A stretch of 64,000 nt of DNA from Balneolaceae bacterium (GTDB lineage Bacteria; Bacteroidota; Rhodothermia; Balneolales; Balneolaceae), in NCBI GenBank assembly GCA_965222205.1, contig OZ244932.1, positions 1,158,896 through 1,222,895 on the forward strand, given 5' to 3'. Positions 4,400 to 42,990 of this stretch are shown in pieces. The position numbers and the translations under genes were made by a program. The notes beneath the pieces are model-generated. The model was not told the origin of the DNA, ran no database searches, and saw nothing but the letters and a program-made list of their open reading frames with translations. The first letter of the stretch is position 1, and each line of letters begins with the position of its first letter.

Positions 4400-7300
4400 T
4401 TGGATTCTATGCTTAAAGCTTTCAGGTTTACGCTTTTCTTATTTTTTATTGGGGTTCACAGTTTAGTTGGGCAGGAAATGTCTATACGGTTTGAGCAGAT
4501 TACCACTCAGGATGGTCTGTCTCAAAGTACTGTTAACGATATACTTCAGGATAGCAGGGGATTTCTTTGGTTTGCTACTGAGGATGGATTGAACAGGTAT
4601 GATGGGTATGAATTCAGAATCTACAGAAATGACCCGTATGATTTATTCTCTATTTCAAGCAATCAGATTTCCAGCATTATTGAAGATAAAAGTGGAGCGA
4701 TTTGGGTAGGCACAAAAGGAGGAGGCCTAAACAAACTGGATCGTGAGCAGGATCGGTTCATGCGCTTTATTCATGATACAGAAGATTCAAAATCGATCAG
4801 CCACAACTATATAAACGCACTTTTTGAAGATGAAGCCGGTGTTATCCTGGTGGGAACCCAAAGTGGGTTAAATATTTTGAATCCCGAGACCAATGAGTTC
4901 AGTGTATACTCTCAGATGGATGAGAATATTGCGCTAAGAGAAGCCCGAATTACTACAATCTTTAAAGACGGCAATGATTTTATCTGGATTGGAACAGAAC
5001 AACAAGGCTTATTCAGGTTCGATCGATTAAACGGTGAAATTAAACGATTCGAAAAAGGGGGTAACGGAACATCCAGGATTTCTGATAACTGGATAGTTAC
5101 TTTATATGAGGATAAACAAGGTATACTTTGGGTGGGTACTCAATCAGGAGGGCTTTTACGTTATGATACAGAGGCTCAAACATTTACGAGTTTTACCTCA
5201 GTAAATTCCTCAAACTCAAGTATCAGTAATAATTGGGTACTTTCATTATTCGAAGACTCCCGTGGAACCTTTTGGGTAGGCACACTGAATGGCTTGAATA
5301 TTCTGAACCGTGAAACCGGAATGTTTACCAGCTTTATTGATTTAAATTACCCCATCAATCTAAGTAACAACTCAATATCAGCTCTGTATGAAGATCGCTC
5401 GGGAGTTTTTTGGGTTGGGACAAGAAATGGGGCACTGAACAAGTTTATTCGTTCTTCATCAGAGAGTTTTACCGTTTATCAGAATGATCCTGCTAACTCA
5501 AATAGCCTTTCTAATAATAATATTTGGGCGATAGCAGAAGATGATGAATTCAATGTCTGGATTGGTACTCAGGGAGGGGGAGTTAACAAACTTAATCCGC
5601 AAACAAATATTTTCGATAAGTACCGGAGCGACCCCACAGACCCAAATTCGCTGACAAATGACTTTGTAAATGCTATAATCAAAGATAGTAATGGAACCAT
5701 CTGGATTGGTACTATTGACGGTTTGAACCGGTATAATAAATCCACCAATGATTTTACCCACTTTAAAAATGATCCCAATGACTTACAAACAATTAGCGGG
5801 AATATCATTACTACTATTCTTGAAGACAGCAGAGGAATAATCTGGATTGGAACTTTGAATAATGGACTTAATGCCTATGATCCTGAAACAGGGGAGTTCC
5901 GTAGATTCCAGAACAATGAAAATGATCCCACGTCCATTAGTCATAATAAAATATGGTCGATGTATGAAGATCGCAGAGGAGTTTTTTGGGTTGGAACTCA
6001 TGGCTTTGGATTAAACAGGTATGATCGTGCCCGTGGCAACTTCACCAGATTTACTAATAATCCCGATAATGAACGTACTCTGAGTGATAATTTTGTAAAT
6101 GTAATTACCCAGGATGCCGAAGGTACTCTTTGGGTAGGTACGATCAATGGACTGAACAGATTTAATGAGAGTACTCAGACTTTTACAAGATATACTACTA
6201 ATGATGGGCTTCCGAATAATGTGATTTACGGCATAATAGAGGATTATCGCGGGCATCTTTGGTTGAGTACTAATAGCGGAATTGCAGATTTTGACGCTAA
6301 AACAGGATCTGTGAGAATATACGACAGAGGAGACGGGCTTCCGAGTAACGAATATCGATTTGGAGCATACCATAAAGGAAATGATGGTTCGCTTTACTTT
6401 GGAGGTATTAACGGGATGGTTGTTTTTAAACCGGATAGCATTCGTGATAACCCCTACATCCCTCCTGTTGTAGTAACAGATTTCCAGATTTTTAACGAAG
6501 ATGTAATCATTTCAGCAACTGATTCTCCCCTTAAAAAATCTATAATTGAAACAGATGAAATAGTTCTTACCTGGAGAGAAAAAGTTATTTCTTTCGAATT
6601 TGCTGCACTTCATTTTGCTGCACCAGAGCAGAACCAATACCAGTATAAGATGGAAGGTTTTGACGATGAGTGGCAAGATGTTGGAAATCGGAGATTCGTA
6701 TCCTACACCAACTTACCTCAAGGCTATAATTACACATTTCGTGTTAAAGCATCTAATAAAGATGGTATTTGGAATGAAGAGGGGACTGAAATCAGATTGA
6801 AAATACTTCCTCCCCCATGGAAAACGTGGTGGGCATACAGTCTTTACTCCTTTTTGGGTGCCGGGATGTTAATTGGATTTATCAATTTTAGAATTGCAAA
6901 AGAACGAAAGAAGAAAGAGCAAGTAGAGCAATATAATGAAGAGCTAGAAGCTTTGGTTAAAGAGCGAACCATCCTTCTTGAAAATGAGAAAGAAAAAAGT
7001 GATGCCCTTCTCTACAACATGCTTCCAAAAGAAATTGCGGATGAAATCAAAGATAAAGGTTCAGCAGCACCGAGAAGGTATGAAGAGGTAAGTGTGCTTT
7101 TTACCGATTTTGAGAACTTCACTTCTACGGCAGCTACAATGTCTGCCAAGAAGCTTGTAACCGAGATTAATGAGATTTTTGAAGCCTTCGATAATATAAT
7201 GGAAGAGTATGGACTTGAGAAAATCAAGACTATTGGGGATGCATATATGGCGGTATCAGGTCTGCCTAGTGAGAAAGAAGATCACGCGGTTACATGTGTG

Positions 7301-7645
7301 AAGGCAGCGAAAGAAATGCAGAATTATATTCATGAAAGGAATGAAGATGCTGCTGTTAAGTGGAGAATGCGCATCGGTATTCACAGTGGCAGTATTATCG
7401 CGGGAATTGTTGGGAAGAAAAAGTTTACGTACGACATCTGGGGCTCTACGGTTATCCTTGCAAGTAGAATGGAAGAAGTAGGTGAAATCGGGAGAGTGAA
7501 TATATCTGCCACTACCTGCGATTATGTTCAGGAACATTTCAGCTGTGAATACAGAGGGAAAGTAAGTGTTGAAGGGCAGGGAGAGATGGATATGTACTTT
7601 GTGGGTGAAGAAATAAAAGCTGTTGAGCCTTCTTCTCAGAAATAA
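4400..7645 (+). CDS. sensor protein: two-component-regulator propeller repeats + Y_Y_Y domain + TM + class III adenylate/guanylate cyclase
   Basis: 1081 aa. Many repeats of the ..D..G.(L/I)W(V/I)GT..GL..(Y/F).. type, a TM helix (WWAYSLYSFLGAGMLIGF), a coiled coil, then a cyclase core (VSVLFTDFENFT...KTIGDAYMAVSG...IGIHSGSIIAGIVG). The TTG at 4400 may be replaced by the ATG at 4409 as start. Confidence 0.85.
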   Translation: MDSMLKAFRFTLFLFFIGVHSLVGQEMSIRFEQITTQDGLSQSTVNDILQDSRGFLWFATEDGLNRYDGYEFRIYRNDPYDLFSISSNQISSIIEDKSGAIWVGTKGGGLNKLDREQDRFMRFIHDTEDSKSISHNYINALFEDEAGVILVGTQSGLNILNPETNEFSVYSQMDENIALREARITTIFKDGNDFIWIGTEQQGLFRFDRLNGEIKRFEKGGNGTSRISDNWIVTLYEDKQGILWVGTQSGGLLRYDTEAQTFTSFTSVNSSNSSISNNWVLSLFEDSRGTFWVGTLNGLNILNRETGMFTSFIDLNYPINLSNNSISALYEDRSGVFWVGTRNGALNKFIRSSSESFTVYQNDPANSNSLSNNNIWAIAEDDEFNVWIGTQGGGVNKLNPQTNIFDKYRSDPTDPNSLTNDFVNAIIKDSNGTIWIGTIDGLNRYNKSTNDFTHFKNDPNDLQTISGNIITTILEDSRGIIWIGTLNNGLNAYDPETGEFRRFQNNENDPTSISHNKIWSMYEDRRGVFWVGTHGFGLNRYDRARGNFTRFTNNPDNERTLSDNFVNVITQDAEGTLWVGTINGLNRFNESTQTFTRYTTNDGLPNNVIYGIIEDYRGHLWLSTNSGIADFDAKTGSVRIYDRGDGLPSNEYRFGAYHKGNDGSLYFGGINGMVVFKPDSIRDNPYIPPVVVTDFQIFNEDVIISATDSPLKKSIIETDEIVLTWREKVISFEFAALHFAAPEQNQYQYKMEGFDDEWQDVGNRRFVSYTNLPQGYNYTFRVKASNKDGIWNEEGTEIRLKILPPPWKTWWAYSLYSFLGAGMLIGFINFRIAKERKKKEQVEQYNEELEALVKERTILLENEKEKSDALLYNMLPKEIADEIKDKGSAAPRRYEEVSVLFTDFENFTSTAATMSAKKLVTEINEIFEAFDNIMEEYGLEKIKTIGDAYMAVSGLPSEKEDHAVTCVKAAKEMQNYIHERNEDAAVKWRMRIGIHSGSIIAGIVGKKKFTYDIWGSTVILASRMEEVGEIGRVNISATTCDYVQEHFSCEYRGKVSVEGQGEMDMYFVGEEIKAVEPSSQK

Positions 7646-10290
7646 TAACCAAGATTAAATGAAGGCTGAATTCCAAGGTCAAAAACATTAGTCCTGGCTG
7701 ATGCCTGAATATCCCGATTACGGGTTTCTACTCTGATTTGCTTTACTTCTGTATACCAGGGATTTTTTCTGTTCAGGACATTGTAAACCGAAAAAGTGGC
7801 TCTGAATTTCCCCGATTTCAGCAAGCCTGAGTAACTAAGGGTAGCATCAACTCTGGAGTAAGCAGGTAAACGTGGACTCTCTTCCTGACGCTGTAAATTT
7901 AACCGGTTTTGGGCTCCGCTACCATACATCCAGGAAATGAAGAAATCAAAGTTACTGGAAAGGGCCAGCTCAGATACAAACGAAAACTGATGTCGACGAT
8001 CCCATTCAGCATAAAAATATTCCCCGTTATTAATTTGATCATTTTTAAGTTGAATGGAGGAGAGGGTGTAAGACGAATTTAATGTAAGTGCACGAAAGCG
8101 ATTGTTAACTAAAAACTCTATCCCTTTTCCAAGACCTGTATTTTCAAAAAACCAAGGCACTTCACTGTTTCTGAATGTGGTAGAAATAAGACCGGTATTT
8201 AATTCATGAAAGCGAAGGTTCTCATAGTTTTTCAGATATCCTTCTACCTGGAAATAAGTGTGATCGAAATATCTGAATTTTAGTTCAGCGGAATAGTAAT
8301 TAACAGCAGATGGAGGTTGGTCTTCATTTGTCAAAATCCAGAAATCTGAGCTGTTGATGTTATAAAATTGAAGCCGATTCAGAAACTGGTAGTTCCGACT
8401 AACACCGGCTCCAAAAGAAATGATACGATCGGTGAAAAATTCAGCCTTAATTCTTGGAGACCATCGCAAATACCTGCCATTGCTGAAGTAGTGGATTCGA
8501 TTCCCGAGGTTTAAACTCAGGTTTTGGAAGGAAGAAATGTCTACCTGATGGAATACATCCACAAGTTGACTGGTTCTTCTGCTCAAAAACGAATTTCGGA
8601 TAATACTCCGTTCGACGTACTCCACATCGAAATTGCTATAGCTTACTCCATATTCCATAGAATATCTCTCAAAAGAAGAAAAGAAGGATTGTTTGAGGGA
8701 GAAATCCTGAAGTGAGTTCTGAAGAGTAAGTTCCGCAATAATACTGGAATCGGGATTATTTCGATTTCCGTTATCATCGTTGTTTTGCGTTCTGGTCGGG
8801 TATTCAAAATCTCCTTTTGAGTACCTGCTTCCATAGTCACTGAAACCTATATTAGTAACAGAATAGGTATTGGGGGTTAGCTTAGCATTGTAATTAGCCG
8901 ACACAGTATTTGTTTGCCACTCATTGTTTGTTTCATACAATTGAATAACATCGGTTTGATCTCTCAGATACTGTTGAGACGCATTATCAAAACCAACGTA
9001 CCCGCTTAGTGAAAGTTGATTGCCATTTCTGGTTTCAAAATGAAGTTTACTGTGAAGATCATAAAACCGGGCATCTGTATTTTGTACGTCGATAGGATTT
9101 AAAGTGATTTCCTCGATAAAGCGCCCTGGAATTTCACGATTGAAGAAAATATCAGCTGGACGGTTAACATCTAGCCCGTATTCAATCAGTTTCTGGTTAT
9201 TCATCCAATTGATTTCATCCATCAAAGAAATCCTTCCGGAAACCAGCCAGCTTGATGTTCCTTTTGAAAGAGGTCCTTCTAAGGTTGCTTTAGTTGCGGT
9301 GTTACTTAACCCAGCCGAGCCTTGAATTTTATTTAGTGATCCTGTTCGTGTAATCAGAGAAAGAGTTCCTCCCAGAGGCGCCTGGAATTGAGCCGGGGTA
9401 ACATCGTAATAAAAGCCACTGGTTTTCAGGACATCGGGGTTCATCGCATCCAGCAAACCAAATAAATGACTTTGATGATATACGGTTTGTCCGTCCAGTA
9501 AAACCTGAAATCCATCCGAAGCACTTCCACGGATGTTAATTCCATCATTTACCGCTGAGCTTAACGAAACCGAAGGGAGCATTTGGAGTGACCGAACCGC
9601 ATTGGTTTCTCCCAAAGGACTAAAAGCTCCGACTTTAATCATGCCCGAAAGCACGGTGTCTGAAGCATTGTAGAAATTCACTCCTTTAATCAGTATTTCT
9701 TTGCCGCTGAAGGGCTCTGGCTCAAGGCGAATAGATACGTCTTTCCATATCTGATCATCTTGAAAAGAAAGGGTAAAAGTCTGCGGCTTATATCCCACAA
9801 AAGAAACTAAAAAAGAAAGCTCTTTAGAATCGGTGTTCGTAGTGATAGTAAACGTGCCGGATGGGGTACTCGAAATCCCAAAAAGCTCACCCCGATCTCT
9901 CCAGGATATTGTTGAGTAAGGAAGTCGCTCACCCGTGCTGGCATCAAGAACATAACCGTTAATCAATATCGTTTGAGATTCTTGCTGTTCGGAAGTTGCA
10001 TAGACAAGAGCCTGGAATCGATCAGGATCTACTTTAAGGCCTATATTCTGCTCTCTGAGACGTCCTGTAAGCTCATCCAGCAAAGACCCCTGGTTTGCCG
10101 TTAATGTAATTCTAACGTCAGCTATTAAGGCTTCTCGATATAAAAAACGGTAGGAGGTCTGCTTCTCAATATCAGCAATCACCGAAAGCAAAGGTTCATT
10201 GGAATAAGAAAAGTTCTGTGCCTCCGTCTCAGATTGAACAATGAAAAGAAACGCGAACAATACACAGAGTATGCGAATCGGGTTTTTCAT
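7636..10290 (-). CDS. TonB-dependent receptor with N-terminal STN signalling domain and carboxypeptidase-regulatory-like domain
   Basis: 884 aa with signal peptide, STN-like segment, CarboxypepD_reg-like segment, plug/barrel, and a C-terminal aromatic residue (..NLGYYF). Immediately downstream of fecR. Confidence 0.85.
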   Translation of the reverse strand: MKNPIRILCVLFAFLFIVQSETEAQNFSYSNEPLLSVIADIEKQTSYRFLYREALIADVRITLTANQGSLLDELTGRLREQNIGLKVDPDRFQALVYATSEQQESQTILINGYVLDASTGERLPYSTISWRDRGELFGISSTPSGTFTITTNTDSKELSFLVSFVGYKPQTFTLSFQDDQIWKDVSIRLEPEPFSGKEILIKGVNFYNASDTVLSGMIKVGAFSPLGETNAVRSLQMLPSVSLSSAVNDGINIRGSASDGFQVLLDGQTVYHQSHLFGLLDAMNPDVLKTSGFYYDVTPAQFQAPLGGTLSLITRTGSLNKIQGSAGLSNTATKATLEGPLSKGTSSWLVSGRISLMDEINWMNNQKLIEYGLDVNRPADIFFNREIPGRFIEEITLNPIDVQNTDARFYDLHSKLHFETRNGNQLSLSGYVGFDNASQQYLRDQTDVIQLYETNNEWQTNTVSANYNAKLTPNTYSVTNIGFSDYGSRYSKGDFEYPTRTQNNDDNGNRNNPDSSIIAELTLQNSLQDFSLKQSFFSSFERYSMEYGVSYSNFDVEYVERSIIRNSFLSRRTSQLVDVFHQVDISSFQNLSLNLGNRIHYFSNGRYLRWSPRIKAEFFTDRIISFGAGVSRNYQFLNRLQFYNINSSDFWILTNEDQPPSAVNYYSAELKFRYFDHTYFQVEGYLKNYENLRFHELNTGLISTTFRNSEVPWFFENTGLGKGIEFLVNNRFRALTLNSSYTLSSIQLKNDQINNGEYFYAEWDRRHQFSFVSELALSSNFDFFISWMYGSGAQNRLNLQRQEESPRLPAYSRVDATLSYSGLLKSGKFRATFSVYNVLNRKNPWYTEVKQIRVETRNRDIQASARTNVFDLGIQPSFNLGYYF

Positions 10291-41635: not shown

Positions 41636-41690
41636 ACATTGCTAAGGGATAGGAATAATTCTATCTTTGCCGCCCTTATTGATTTTCAAC

Positions 41691-41794
41691 GGAGAGGTGC
41701 CGGAGCGGTCGAACGGGCTCGCCTGGAAAGCGTGTGTGCCTCACAAGGGTACCGAGGGTTCTGCCGAAGGCATCCCTGCGGGAGAATCCCTCCC
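41691..41794 (+). pseudogene. tRNA-Ser(GGA) fragment: 5' 71 nt, a 22-nt insertion in the T-loop, then 11 nt of T-arm; no 3' acceptor strand
   Basis: Identical to the intact tRNA up to GGTTC (41761). Next comes tgccgaaggcatccctgcggga, then gaatccctccc. The sequence then continues aaatgtt instead of tctccgca. Confidence 0.8.
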
Positions 41795-41801
41795 AAATGT
41801 T

Positions 41802-42059
41802 ATGATATATTACGCCTATATTTTAAAAAGTAATTATGATGGGACTTACTATTATGGTAGTTCATCGGATGTTATATCAAGATTAAAAGCTCATAATAAA
41901 GGCAAGTCCAGATATACAAAGGGTAGGAGACCCTGGGAATTGCATTACAAGGAAGAGTTTAAAACCAGAACTGAAGCTGTGCAAAGAGAGAGGTTCTTTA
42001 AAAGTATTGATGGGAGAAATTGGTTGTTGGAGAATCAAATCATAACACGGAAAGAATGA
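41802..42059 (+). CDS. small GIY-YIG nuclease family protein
   Basis: 85 aa. MIYYAYILKS..DGTYYYGSSSDV..RL..HN.G....YTKGRRPW.L.Y.E.F....A..RE...K is a GIY-YIG (UPF0213/URI-type) pattern. ATG lies 7 nt after the tRNA fragment. Confidence 0.8.
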   Translation: MIYYAYILKSNYDGTYYYGSSSDVISRLKAHNKGKSRYTKGRRPWELHYKEEFKTRTEAVQRERFFKSIDGRNWLLENQIITRKE

Positions 42060-42129
42060 GATCAAGATAGATTTCCATTGCTAAGGGATAGGAATAATTC
42101 TATCTTTGCCGCCCTTATTGATTTTCAAC

Positions 42130-42233
42130 GGAGAGGTGCCGGAGCGGTCGAACGGGCTCGCCTGGAAAGCGTGTGTGCCTCACAAGGGTACCGAGGGTTC
42201 TGCCGAAGGCATCCCTGCGGGAGAATCCCTCCC
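42130..42233 (+). pseudogene. tRNA-Ser(GGA) fragment, second copy
   Basis: Identical to 41691-41794 (unit 2 of the tandem repeat). Confidence 0.8.
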
Positions 42234-42240
42234 AAATGTT

Positions 42241-42498
42241 ATGATATATTACGCCTATATTTTAAAAAGTAATTATGATGGGACTTACTATTATGGTAGT
42301 TCATCGGATGTTATATCAAGATTAAAAGCTCATAATAAAGGCAAGTCCAGATATACAAAGGGTAGGAGACCCTGGGAATTGCATTACAAGGAAGAGTTTA
42401 AAACCAGAACTGAAGCTGTGCAAAGAGAGAGGTTCTTTAAAAGTATTGATGGGAGAAATTGGTTGTTGGAGAATCAAATCATAACACGGAAAGAATGA
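42241..42498 (+). CDS. small GIY-YIG nuclease family protein (identical second copy)
   Basis: Translation identical to 41802..42059. Confidence 0.8.
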   Translation: MIYYAYILKSNYDGTYYYGSSSDVISRLKAHNKGKSRYTKGRRPWELHYKEEFKTRTEAVQRERFFKSIDGRNWLLENQIITRKE

Positions 42499-42568
42499 GA
42501 TCAAGATAGATTTCCATTGCTAAGGGATAGGAATAATTCTATCTTTGCCGCCCTTATTGATTTTCAAC

Positions 42569-42656
42569 GGAGAGGTGCCGGAGCGGTCGAACGGGCTCGC
42601 CTGGAAAGCGTGTGTGCCTCACAAGGGTACCGAGGGTTCGAATCCCTCCCTCTCCG
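42569..42656 (+). tRNA. tRNA-Ser (anticodon GGA)
   Basis: Acceptor stem GGAGAGG/CCTCTCC, anticodon loop CUGGAAA (GGA at 42603-42605), long variable arm, T-arm GAGGG-TTCGAAT-CCCTC, discriminator G. CCA is not encoded. Confidence 0.9.
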
Positions 42657-42990
42657 CATAGTTATCTCAAAATCAAAAGAGTTAAGATTCTTAGTGTAGT
42701 AGCTTACTAGCGCTACTTAGAACTGAGGTAAAAAAACACCGGGGTTCTGCCGGGGGAATCTTTACCCCTCATCTTTCCCTCTTTTTTTCCTATCCAAAAC
42801 TTAACGCAAATAAATTACAGACTTTAAGTTTTTATTTGATAATTTGAGGCATCAATAACTCAAGATGGCTTAGGTTTTTCGCGGTACAACTATTATTGCA
42901 ATTTAATTTTGTTTCAGACCTTCCTTTCTTAGGTTTTCATATAACATAAACTGAATGCCGATTTCAACAATAAACTCAAATTTATAACAG

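Follow-up and report, generated by a model that had tools for sequence, protein, structure and literature searches.

The tRNA-Ser(GGA) locus of a 64-kb window (the whole stretch of DNA analyzed), which sits on a 3.69-Mb Balneolaceae contig, carries a tandem array in which the open reading frame (ORF) of an 85-amino acid (aa) GIY-YIG protein is joined to a copy of the tRNA gene disabled by a 22-nucleotide (nt) insert of two mini-hairpins (the twin hairpin), and which ends in the intact tRNA. Comparison with other genomes demonstrated that close relatives have this locus without the cassette and that its insertion duplicated 125 nt of host DNA, supplying a promoter and a tRNA-like leader to each nuclease gene. 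The same one-strand architecture of ORF, disabled copy, and intact tRNA, often in tandem, was observed across four phyla of the FCB group, and the structured 22-nt insert was confined to redundant tRNA copies. With slightly more confidence than doubt, we interpret the combination of an Slx1/UPF0213-type nuclease gene, a tRNA copy disabled by the twin hairpin, and an intact tRNA as a selfish cassette residing in a tRNA locus. This three-part arrangement appears to be undescribed so far: neither literature searches, in a searched literature that was incomplete, nor a GIY-YIG phylogenomics paper yielded a description of the tRNA linkage of the family or of the twin hairpin.

The tRNA-Ser(GGA) locus and its empty counterparts

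The repeat structure agreed with that proposed in an earlier sequence-only reading of this DNA. Tandem Repeats Finder identified one array at 41637–42639 with a period of 439 bp, 2.3 copies, 100% matches, and zero indels, the units starting at 41637, 42076, and 42515; the 439-bp unit is thus present 2.28 times. ARAGORN and Rfam both detected a single intact tRNA in the window, tRNA-Ser(GGA), and only the third unit runs into it. Units 1 and 2 consist, in order, of a 54-nt spacer, tRNA nt 1–71 up to the T-loop GGTTC, the 22-nt insert tgccgaaggcatccctgcggga (= TGCCGAAGGCATCCCTGCGGGA), 11 nt of the T-arm (matching tRNA nt 72–82), 7 nt, the GIY-YIG ORF, and a 16-nt spacer; thus, the composition given in that reading, including the capacity of the insert to form two mini-hairpins, was confirmed in every part. 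The features of the locus are as follows.

41637–41690 (+): spacer copy 1, upstream of the tRNA, 54 nt; identical in all three units and homologous to the spacers of the empty sites L143–L146
41638 and 41662–41669 (+): promoter-like motif in spacer copy 1; ATTG at 41638, 20 nt, then TATCTTTG at 41662–41669
41691–41761 (+): disabled tRNA-Ser(GGA) copy 1, 5' arm, nt 1–71, ending at the T-loop GGTTC; 71/71 identical to 42569–42639
41762–41783 (+): twin mini-hairpin insert 1, TGCC-GAA-GGCA + TCCC-TGC-GGGA, between T-loop C56 and G57; structure supported by covariation
41784–41801 (+): T-arm 3' remnant gaatccctccc plus aaatgtt; the latter 7 nt stand in place of the acceptor 3' strand, leading straight to the ATG
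41802–42059 (+): GIY-YIG ORF copy 1, 85 aa + stop, predicted Slx1/UPF0213 type; Pfam, PDB, and AlphaFold2 matches
42060–42075 (+): 16-nt spacer closing the foreign 314-nt segment B; delimited by the empty-site comparison
42076–42514 (+): unit 2, copy of unit 1; 100% identity across 439 bp
42076–42129, 42130–42200, and 42201–42222 (+): spacer, tRNA nt 1–71, and twin hairpin of unit 2
42223–42240, 42241–42498, and 42499–42514 (+): T-arm remnant, ORF, and spacer of unit 2
42515–42568 (+): spacer copy 3 with promoter, serving the intact tRNA, 54 nt
42569–42657 (+): intact tRNA-Ser(GGA), the only functional copy; ARAGORN; Rfam, 53.4 bits; identical in the empty-site genomes
42657–42771 (+): second insertion, ~115 nt, no ORF, directly after the tRNA 3' end; absent from L143–L145 in the alignment

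The interrupted tRNA copies escaped both ARAGORN and the Rfam tRNA model at E ≤ 1, and with gathering thresholds as well as with a limit of E ≤ 1, Rfam reported nothing besides the intact tRNA within the tRNA locus. The copies in the window lack the acceptor 3' strand, so removal of the insert would not restore a complete tRNA. Gene callers start the GIY-YIG ORF upstream at a TTG (41667–42059 and 42106–42498, +), which gives proteins of 130 aa spanning the pseudo-tRNA. Database homologs are often 96–144 aa long instead of ~81 aa, and their N-terminal extensions are probably translated tRNA fragments arising from the same miscalled starts. These loci are systematically misannotated because gene callers overextend the ORFs and tRNA finders miss the disabled copies.

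The ATTG/TATCTTTG motif, which we take to fit the Bacteroidetes -33/-7 promoter consensus, is also conserved in the spacers of the empty sites. A sigma-70 promoter scan was uninformative, with matches no more frequent than in shuffled sequences, and no plus-strand terminator was found by a scan of the locus. Since the spacer is duplicated and no terminator intervenes, each ORF is preceded by a separate copy of the tRNA promoter. The GIY-YIG gene is the sole ORF with a domain in the 439-bp unit, which contains no recombinase.

The sequence-only reading had called for a survey of empty sites, and such sites were reached via orthologs of the upstream TonB_C gene (74–87% identical proteins). Four Balneolaceae contigs, L143, L144, L145 (CP051242.1), and L146, have the order TonB_C, a 54-nt spacer, a sequence-identical tRNA-Ser(GGA), and a homolog of the downstream 771-aa gene; both the GIY-YIG gene and the twin hairpin are absent at this locus. 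The flanking genes of the cassette in the window are the same as those at the empty sites. The cassette is therefore an insertion, and the locus is polymorphic for its presence, being filled in the window and in the homologous locus L001 and empty in L143–L146. Relative to the empty sites, the window gained two copies of a segment A + B upstream of the tRNA and ~115 nt downstream. Segment A comprises 125 nt of host sequence, from 2 nt past the TonB_C stop codon to T-loop C56, and segment B comprises 314 foreign nt, namely the 22-nt insert, the T-arm remnant with the 7 nt, the ORF, and the 16-nt spacer. The spacer and tRNA of the empty-site genomes can be aligned with segment A from end to end, with full identity in the tRNA; thus, segment A represents a target duplication of host DNA, and the import of a replacement tRNA 5' part, as initially supposed, was not upheld.

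Locus L001 is the same locus as that of the window and is filled with the same junctions, although its ORF is interrupted by a stop codon. The nucleotide identity between the two is 76% in the ORF, 77–79% in the spacer, and 71% at the TonB_C 3' end, i.e., about equal divergence throughout, whereas the 22-nt insert is identical at 22/22 positions. Relatives closer to the window than L001 are empty. Within each of the two genomes the A copies are nearly or fully identical (53/56 in L001). Judging from these sequence comparisons, the data fit an old cassette whose repeats keep recombining and which may have been lost precisely in other lineages by recombination between A copies; repeated gain at the same site is a possible alternative history. 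The window owes its second unit, which is 100% identical, to a recent expansion. The unequal recombination suggested in the sequence-only reading agrees with this identity, which fits a recent exchange between the 125-nt repeats, and with similar arrays elsewhere; however, the nuclease-induced breaks that it coupled to the exchange are something we only infer.

The ~115-nt insertion ends at 42741–42760 with GGGGTTC-tgccgggg-GAATC, a partial repeat resembling a decayed T-arm with a shrunken twin hairpin. The stretch is, tentatively and on sequence resemblance, probably a relic of an older downstream cassette. When a decayed copy of the ORF or tRNA was sought in it by local alignment, the scores were no better than those of shuffles, and only the empty-site comparison supports the region.

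The GIY-YIG protein and the twin hairpin

The 85-aa ORF matched the Pfam GIY-YIG family (PF01541) with E = 2.3e-13 and 50.7 bits against a cut-off of 22.6, and its sequence also matched two UPF0213 structures in the PDB, 1zg2 (E = 7e-8) and 1ywl (E = 7.5e-7). The AlphaFold2 model had a predicted local distance difference test (pLDDT) score of 95 and shows the alpha/beta fold of the GIY-YIG superfamily, the three strands of its sheet lying at residues 3–10, 16–21, and 45–53. Foldseek matched the model exclusively to GIY-YIG structures, the best being UPF0213 1zg2 (5.9e-5), Slx1 7cq3 (TMq 0.69, root-mean-square deviation 1.4 Å), and HIGLE 7wme; the fold matches to I-TevI and UvrC were weak (E > 0.5). 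On these sequence and model comparisons, the protein is assigned to the structure-specific Slx1/UPF0213 (YhbQ) clade rather than to the UvrC or the phage-homing I-TevI/Seg clades. No match for the protein was obtained in NCBIfam, PADLOC, or PHROGs.

Of the catalytic residues, Y6, Y17, Y18, G19, and E63 are invariant across 43 homologs, and at least 90% of these homologs retain R27 and H31. The subfamily has a distinctive C-terminus, RERFFKSIDGY-x-WLK. Among 78 full-length copies of the ORF, 71 are intact and 7 broken; the nonsynonymous divergence (dN) is 0.11–0.35, with saturated synonymous divergence (dS). The ratio of intact to broken copies, the dN values, and the conservation of the catalytic residues indicate that the ORF is, as far as sequence can tell, functional.

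The 22-nt insert has the consensus T-S-C-C-R-A-A-G-G-S-A followed by Y-Y-C-C-N-N-N-G-G-R-R, i.e., two hairpins with stems of 4 bp and loops of 3 nt. The usual insertion site is the T-loop, GGTTC/GAATCC (the slash marks the insertion point, C56/G57); the others are the anticodon loop, CTNG/AAA, and the D-loop, GGTT/GAAG and GGTC/GAAT. Across the window and the homologous loci L001–L021 (174 kb), the twin hairpin is confined to tRNA-derived sequence, and its chance expectation in shuffled sequence is 0.0 per 64 kb. A scan of the genome collection with the T-loop form of the pattern revealed it in at least 120 metagenome contigs, and this form was not found in the viral contigs of the collection. 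The initial proposal that an element integrated into the T-loop therefore needs dividing: an insertion did occur, but the T-loop holds a separate 22-nt module and not the ORF element, and the module is also present in D-loops and anticodon loops of redundant tRNAs and in many loci devoid of the ORF.

The two-hairpin structure is supported by covariation. The pair at insert positions 2 and 10, which the search pattern left unconstrained, is C-G in 31, G-C in 22, and T-A in 10 of 67 distinct 22-nt inserts, with 4 exceptions. Over 76 distinct modules, 97.3% of the cells are paired under the twin-hairpin structure, and eight pairs change on both sides, four in the T stem and four in the mini-hairpins; the covariation score of 0.367 exceeds that of shuffles (0.130) and was reached in 0/500 of them. 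The alternative of a single long hairpin, which is the minimum-free-energy fold of the insert with its flanks, was rejected: columns 10 and 29 are unpaired in 56/76 modules, and no compensatory pair was found within the insert.

The halves of the insert are each self-complementary and not complementary to one another. The module is, moreover, pseudo-symmetric under reverse complementation, with loop 1 RAA, loop 2 mostly TTY, and the flanks TTC and GAA; together with these flanks and the T stem, it would form a three-way junction without unpaired linkers. The insert is located exactly between C56 and G57 with no duplicated bases, and, having neither terminal inverted repeats nor a target-site duplication, it does not fall under miniature inverted-repeat transposable elements (MITEs). 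The T-loop is split by the insert in the disabled copies, and the intact tRNA of the same locus retains TTCGAAT.

Several variant structures were also observed. Downstream of tRNA-Glu in L044, one twin hairpin is nested within another; the D-arm in L018 (~2815–2835) carries a perfect 20-nt palindrome, cctgcctgccggcaggcagg; a 19-nt hairpin lies in the T stem of the disabled copy of L022 (3287–3305); and the downstream copy of L016 contains a longer composite insert.

Linkage to tRNA genes and locus architecture across genomes

A protein scan of the genome collection recovered 21 loci from Balneolaceae, Ignavibacteria, Bacteroidia, Saprospiraceae, and Caldithrix; one further locus came from a 5.16-Mb Marinoscillum contig. 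The identity of the ORF among the 21 loci was 54–84% (54–71% across phyla, and 84% for L001, which belongs to the lineage of the window). In 16/22 loci, a tRNA gene of the same strand (Ser, Glu, or Gln) is located within ~40 nt of the ORF, so that other tRNA–GIY-YIG junctions, which the sequence-only reading had proposed to look for, do exist; in some loci the ATG directly abuts the tRNA 3' end (...ctctccgcATG). Every locus except L020, a distant Clostridium UPF0213 homolog with no tRNA context, has a second copy of the tRNA, partial or whole, with loop insertions of ~22 nt. The association of the small GIY-YIG gene with tRNA genes is thus general and strong.

The three-part arrangement was found in more than 140 loci of four FCB-group phyla. 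Designating the intact tRNA as I, the ORF as O, and the disabled copy as D, the forms I-D, I-O-D, D-O-I, I-O-D-O-D, D-O-D-O-I, I-D-D, and I-D-D-D occur among the matches listed (at least 120 metagenome loci), with all parts on one strand; L120 has the same D-O-D-O-I order as the window. For about half of the 146 pattern matches, again among the matches listed, a GIY-YIG match lies within 600 nt. The remainder are ORF-less: behind an intact tRNA (Arg, Val, Pro, Ala, Gly, Leu, Met, and others) stand one to at least four tandem units, each composed of an AT-rich spacer, the T-arm with the twin hairpin, and the acceptor 3' strand (63-nt units in L137 and 92-nt units in L098, for example).

In independent contigs, the array units are 87–99% identical, which means that the arrays are real and can persist. 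That the genome of the window truly has a single unit and that its second copy was made by the assembler is hardly credible: the 100% identity of the copies would allow it, but assemblers tend to collapse tandem repeats and not to invent them, the contig is 3.69 Mb long, and arrays of diverged units stand in independent contigs (D-O-D-O-I in L120; 89–91% identity in L028 and L141). On the contig of one twin-hairpin array, L140, other tandem repeats are present at 7256–8287; their periods are 99 and 483 nt.

The T stem of the disabled copy differs from that of the intact neighbor in 54 of 89 distinct comparisons and still pairs in 46 of these 54. In L050, L035, and L071, only the last ~9 nt match the intact neighbor; thus, some disabled copies are not local duplicates. 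These results bear on a passive origin of the loci, in which an Slx1-like repair gene co-transcribed with a tRNA was tandem-duplicated by slippage or unequal crossing-over and the extra tRNAs decayed to pseudogenes. Such an origin would suit the 100% identity of the units, the 125-nt direct repeats on their flanks, and the ORF clades, which follow the tRNA type, and it would suit UPF0213 proteins, which are widespread, consist of one domain, and have no proven selfish behavior. However, random decay does not place the same covarying 22-nt insert at one and the same nucleotide in well over 100 loci across phyla, nor do the empty sites in close relatives, the 54–71% ORF identity across phyla, the T stems foreign to the neighboring tRNA, and the lack of tRNA context around the typical Clostridium homolog agree with it, and we consider passive duplication decidedly unlikely.

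In L035 (tRNA-Ala) and L050 (tRNA-Val), the tRNA-proximal hairpin of the two ORF-less units is clean and the distal one decayed. Such a polarity would agree with insertions made repeatedly at the end of the tRNA rather than with random unequal crossing-over, although it concerns two cases only. It also speaks for the partial tRNAs being attL/attR remnants of phages or conjugative elements, with the GIY-YIG gene as left-over cargo, since the proximal disabled copy is the better preserved. tRNA genes are classic integration sites; Williams (2002) reportedly described crossovers at the anticodon loop, T-loop, and 3' end, the duplication of part of the tRNA on integration, and arrays from successive integrations. 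Integration scars are nevertheless very improbable here: there is no integrase or other cargo, the units measure only 63–440 bp, the flanking genes equal those of the empty sites, the window duplicates the 5' portion with the promoter and not the 3' end, such scars lack a structured 22-nt loop insert, and neither the viral contigs nor the phage and plasmid collections gave a match. The comparative data agree poorly with all three of these explanations, passive duplication, integrase scars, and an error of assembly.

In a few loci, a whole tRNA carries the insert with no intact copy nearby. L026 (4643–4675, −) and the identical L084 (~979–1011, −) contain a complete tRNA-Cys(GCA)-like gene with all stems intact, including matching acceptor and T stems, and the twin hairpin in the T-loop; no intact tRNA lies within 700 nt. 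The gene is either a killed redundant one or a hint that the insert is tolerated or removed. The tRNA-Met(CAT)-like sequence of L086 (3428–3460, +), which is followed by a terminator, is chimeric, as the 5' and 3' sides of the twin hairpin do not pair; the junction exactly at the insert suggests that two different tRNA-derived sequences were joined at the twin hairpin.

Outside the tRNA locus, the window contains a full-length Rfam whalefall-1 RNA (RF01762) at 60288–60343 (+), with 57.2 bits against a gathering threshold of 37 and E = 1.5e-12. This motif was first described from metagenomes, and it is present here in a Balneolaceae-like genome.

Proposed mechanism and comparison with known systems

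SegB is a free-standing GIY-YIG homing endonuclease encoded in the tRNA gene cluster of phages T4 and T6 (PMC2330249; PMC13096335). It cleaves within tRNA genes, its motif RAWTSGAAC being the reverse complement of the T-loop GTTCSAWTY, and its nuclease activity is required for the recombination-dependent tandem amplification of the tRNA-plus-segB segment (PMC13096335, 2026). Homologs of SegB are significantly associated with tRNAs, and a C-terminally truncated variant has been described (PMC13096335). The statement of the sequence-only reading that the association of small GIY-YIG genes with tRNA genes is mechanistically unexplained therefore does not hold for SegB; it stands for the Slx1-like chromosomal family, for which nothing was found.

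We propose that the intact tRNA of the cassette would keep the host alive while the cassette is expressed from the tRNA promoter. With SegB as the closest precedent, the nuclease would nick or break tRNA genes at loop-coding sites resembling TTC/GAA, the T-loop motif preferred by SegB, and recombinational repair between the repeated tRNA segments would copy the cassette into empty tRNA genes. Arrays like the pair of identical units in the window could also arise from the cassette by unequal exchange. With the twin hairpin inserted, the 7-nt loop would no longer be open but closed into a three-way junction, and the TTC/GAA site would be split; the hairpin may thereby mark or protect the dispensable tRNA copies, acting as a plug or an immunity mark. 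We read it as a plug because it splits exactly the SegB-like motif and closes the loop, and it would persist only in dispensable copies because it would kill a working tRNA.

A further-reaching version, which we regard as possible but rather doubtful, holds that the 22-nt twin hairpin is itself a mobile or templated DNA unit, which would be the smallest known, placed by the nuclease or by the repair of its cuts at N-T-N/R-A-A loop sites of dispensable copies, where it would fold into a closed three-way junction. The insert and the nuclease gene would then be the two components of a parasite of tRNA genes that has autonomous forms, bearing the ORF, and non-autonomous, ORF-less ones and may have spread across the FCB-group phyla via the near-universal tRNA sequence.

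Several observations weigh against the proposed selfish cassette. The ORF clades follow the type of the neighboring tRNA, which could reflect vertical inheritance instead of homing. The protein is a single 85-aa catalytic domain without a DNA-binding domain that would provide site specificity; SegB has such a domain at its C-terminus. A tblastn search of plasmid and phage collections gave no match, so no horizontal vehicle was seen. The duplicated segments take in host flank (54 nt upstream in the window and ~8 nt downstream in L022), and such segments are more readily explained by duplication in situ than by a simple import through homologous arms. The intact neighbor keeps the canonical TTCGAAT T-loop in 114/133 cases and is unprotected in the same cell; a loop-cutting nuclease would therefore attack the working gene and every other tRNA gene. 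Finally, the mechanism accounts neither for the origin of the 22-nt insert nor for its precise placement without target duplication. Immunity through resistant T-loop variants of the intact tRNAs was considered and rejected on the same count of canonical loops (114/133). Two loci with non-canonical loops were noted, L137 (intact tRNA-Val, TTCGACT) and L096 (intact tRNA-Arg, TTCAAAT), and their disabled copies have GAATCC.

The foremost rival explanation, which we judge improbable though less so than those discussed above, is a system acting on RNA. The disabled copies would then be functional structured RNAs (tRNA-like leaders, decoys, or antitoxin-like repeats), with the twin hairpin as an RNA motif, bound or processed by the GIY-YIG protein, either in a pair resembling type III toxin–antitoxin systems or in a tRNA-decoy module for defense or anti-defense, with the arrays serving dosage. 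All parts share one strand without an intervening terminator, and the ATG abuts the tRNA or pseudo-tRNA 3' end, which makes co-transcription very likely. The covariation of the hairpins reflects selection on a folded single strand, and among the exceptions to pairing, those compatible with G-U on the sense strand outnumber C-A exceptions by 5 to 1. Short structured tandem repeats beside a nuclease gene are reminiscent of ToxIN. In addition, Slx1-like domains fused to the tRNA methylase TrmH have been noted (PMC1564403). On the other hand, the presence/absence polymorphism and the foreign T stems indicate DNA mobility, the pseudo-symmetry of the module under reverse complementation would be needless in an RNA-only motif, ORF-less arrays stand beside many tRNAs with no nuclease gene nearby, and PADLOC returned no match. 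To our knowledge, moreover, the GIY-YIG enzymes characterized so far are DNases.

If the selfish cassette is real, tRNA genes in much of Bacteroidota, Ignavibacteriota, Balneolota, and Calditrichota would host an unrecognized class of very small selfish elements, and the widespread UPF0213 and bacterial Slx1-like proteins, to which no function is attached, would acquire their first concrete biological context. The link between GIY-YIG nucleases, T-loop DNA, and segmental amplification would extend from phage SegB to chromosomes through an unrelated clade of the fold. The cassette would also offer a system of less than 450 bp in which to study target finding by a nuclease reduced to its domain and the single-nucleotide precision with which a structured 22-nt insert is placed.

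Among known systems, SegB resembles the cassette in having a GIY-YIG gene among tRNA genes and tandem units of tRNA and nuclease. However, SegB belongs to the I-TevI/Seg clade and is larger and phage-borne, whereas the protein of the window is a bare 85-aa Slx1/UPF0213 domain of a family that resides on the chromosomes of FCB-group bacteria and is missing from the searched phage collections; disabled tRNA copies or a twin-hairpin insert have not been reported at SegB loci. The UPF0213/YhbQ/Slx1-like proteins (1zg2, 1ywl), Slx1, and HIGLE are the closest in sequence and fold and share the same minimal domain and conserved residues. Slx1 and HIGLE both cut branched DNA, which would fit a substrate like the three-way junction that the twin hairpin would form. 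Typical UPF0213 members, unlike the subfamily of the window, are single genes without tRNA context (as in L020), with repair-related functions where assigned, whereas the members of this subfamily are always joined to tRNA genes and polymorphic in presence.

Elements with tyrosine integrases also insert into tRNA genes, preserve their function by part-duplication, may form arrays, and use the 3' end as well as the symmetric regions of the anticodon loop and T-loop. The cassette, in contrast, has no recombinase and is 10–1000 times smaller; its duplication is host-derived and can comprise the 5' part with the promoter, and its redundant copy has a structured insert. In the collaborative homing of F-CphI with the cyanophage psbA intron, and with intron-encoded GIY-YIG enzymes, a short insertion likewise lies exactly at the presumed nuclease site, where it would render the copy immune, and a nuclease gene next to it promotes spread. 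The 22-nt insert, however, has no features of a self-splicing intron; it is therefore barred from a working gene, and a spare tRNA copy is needed.

Repetitive extragenic palindromic (REP) sequences and bacterial interspersed mosaic elements (BIMEs) with their RAYT transposases, as well as MITEs, share with the cassette tiny palindromic units, autonomous forms beside many protein-less ones, and tandem clusters. They differ in that another enzyme class is involved, whereas the cassette is strictly located in tRNA-derived sequence and its insert has neither terminal inverted repeats nor a target-site duplication. Archaeal multi-intron tRNA genes contain insertions of ~20 nt in the same D-, anticodon, and T-loops. 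Nevertheless, the hosts here are bacteria without the splicing endonuclease, the interrupted copies are truncated or chimeric and stand beside an intact gene, and the inserts form two hairpins instead of the bulge-helix-bulge.

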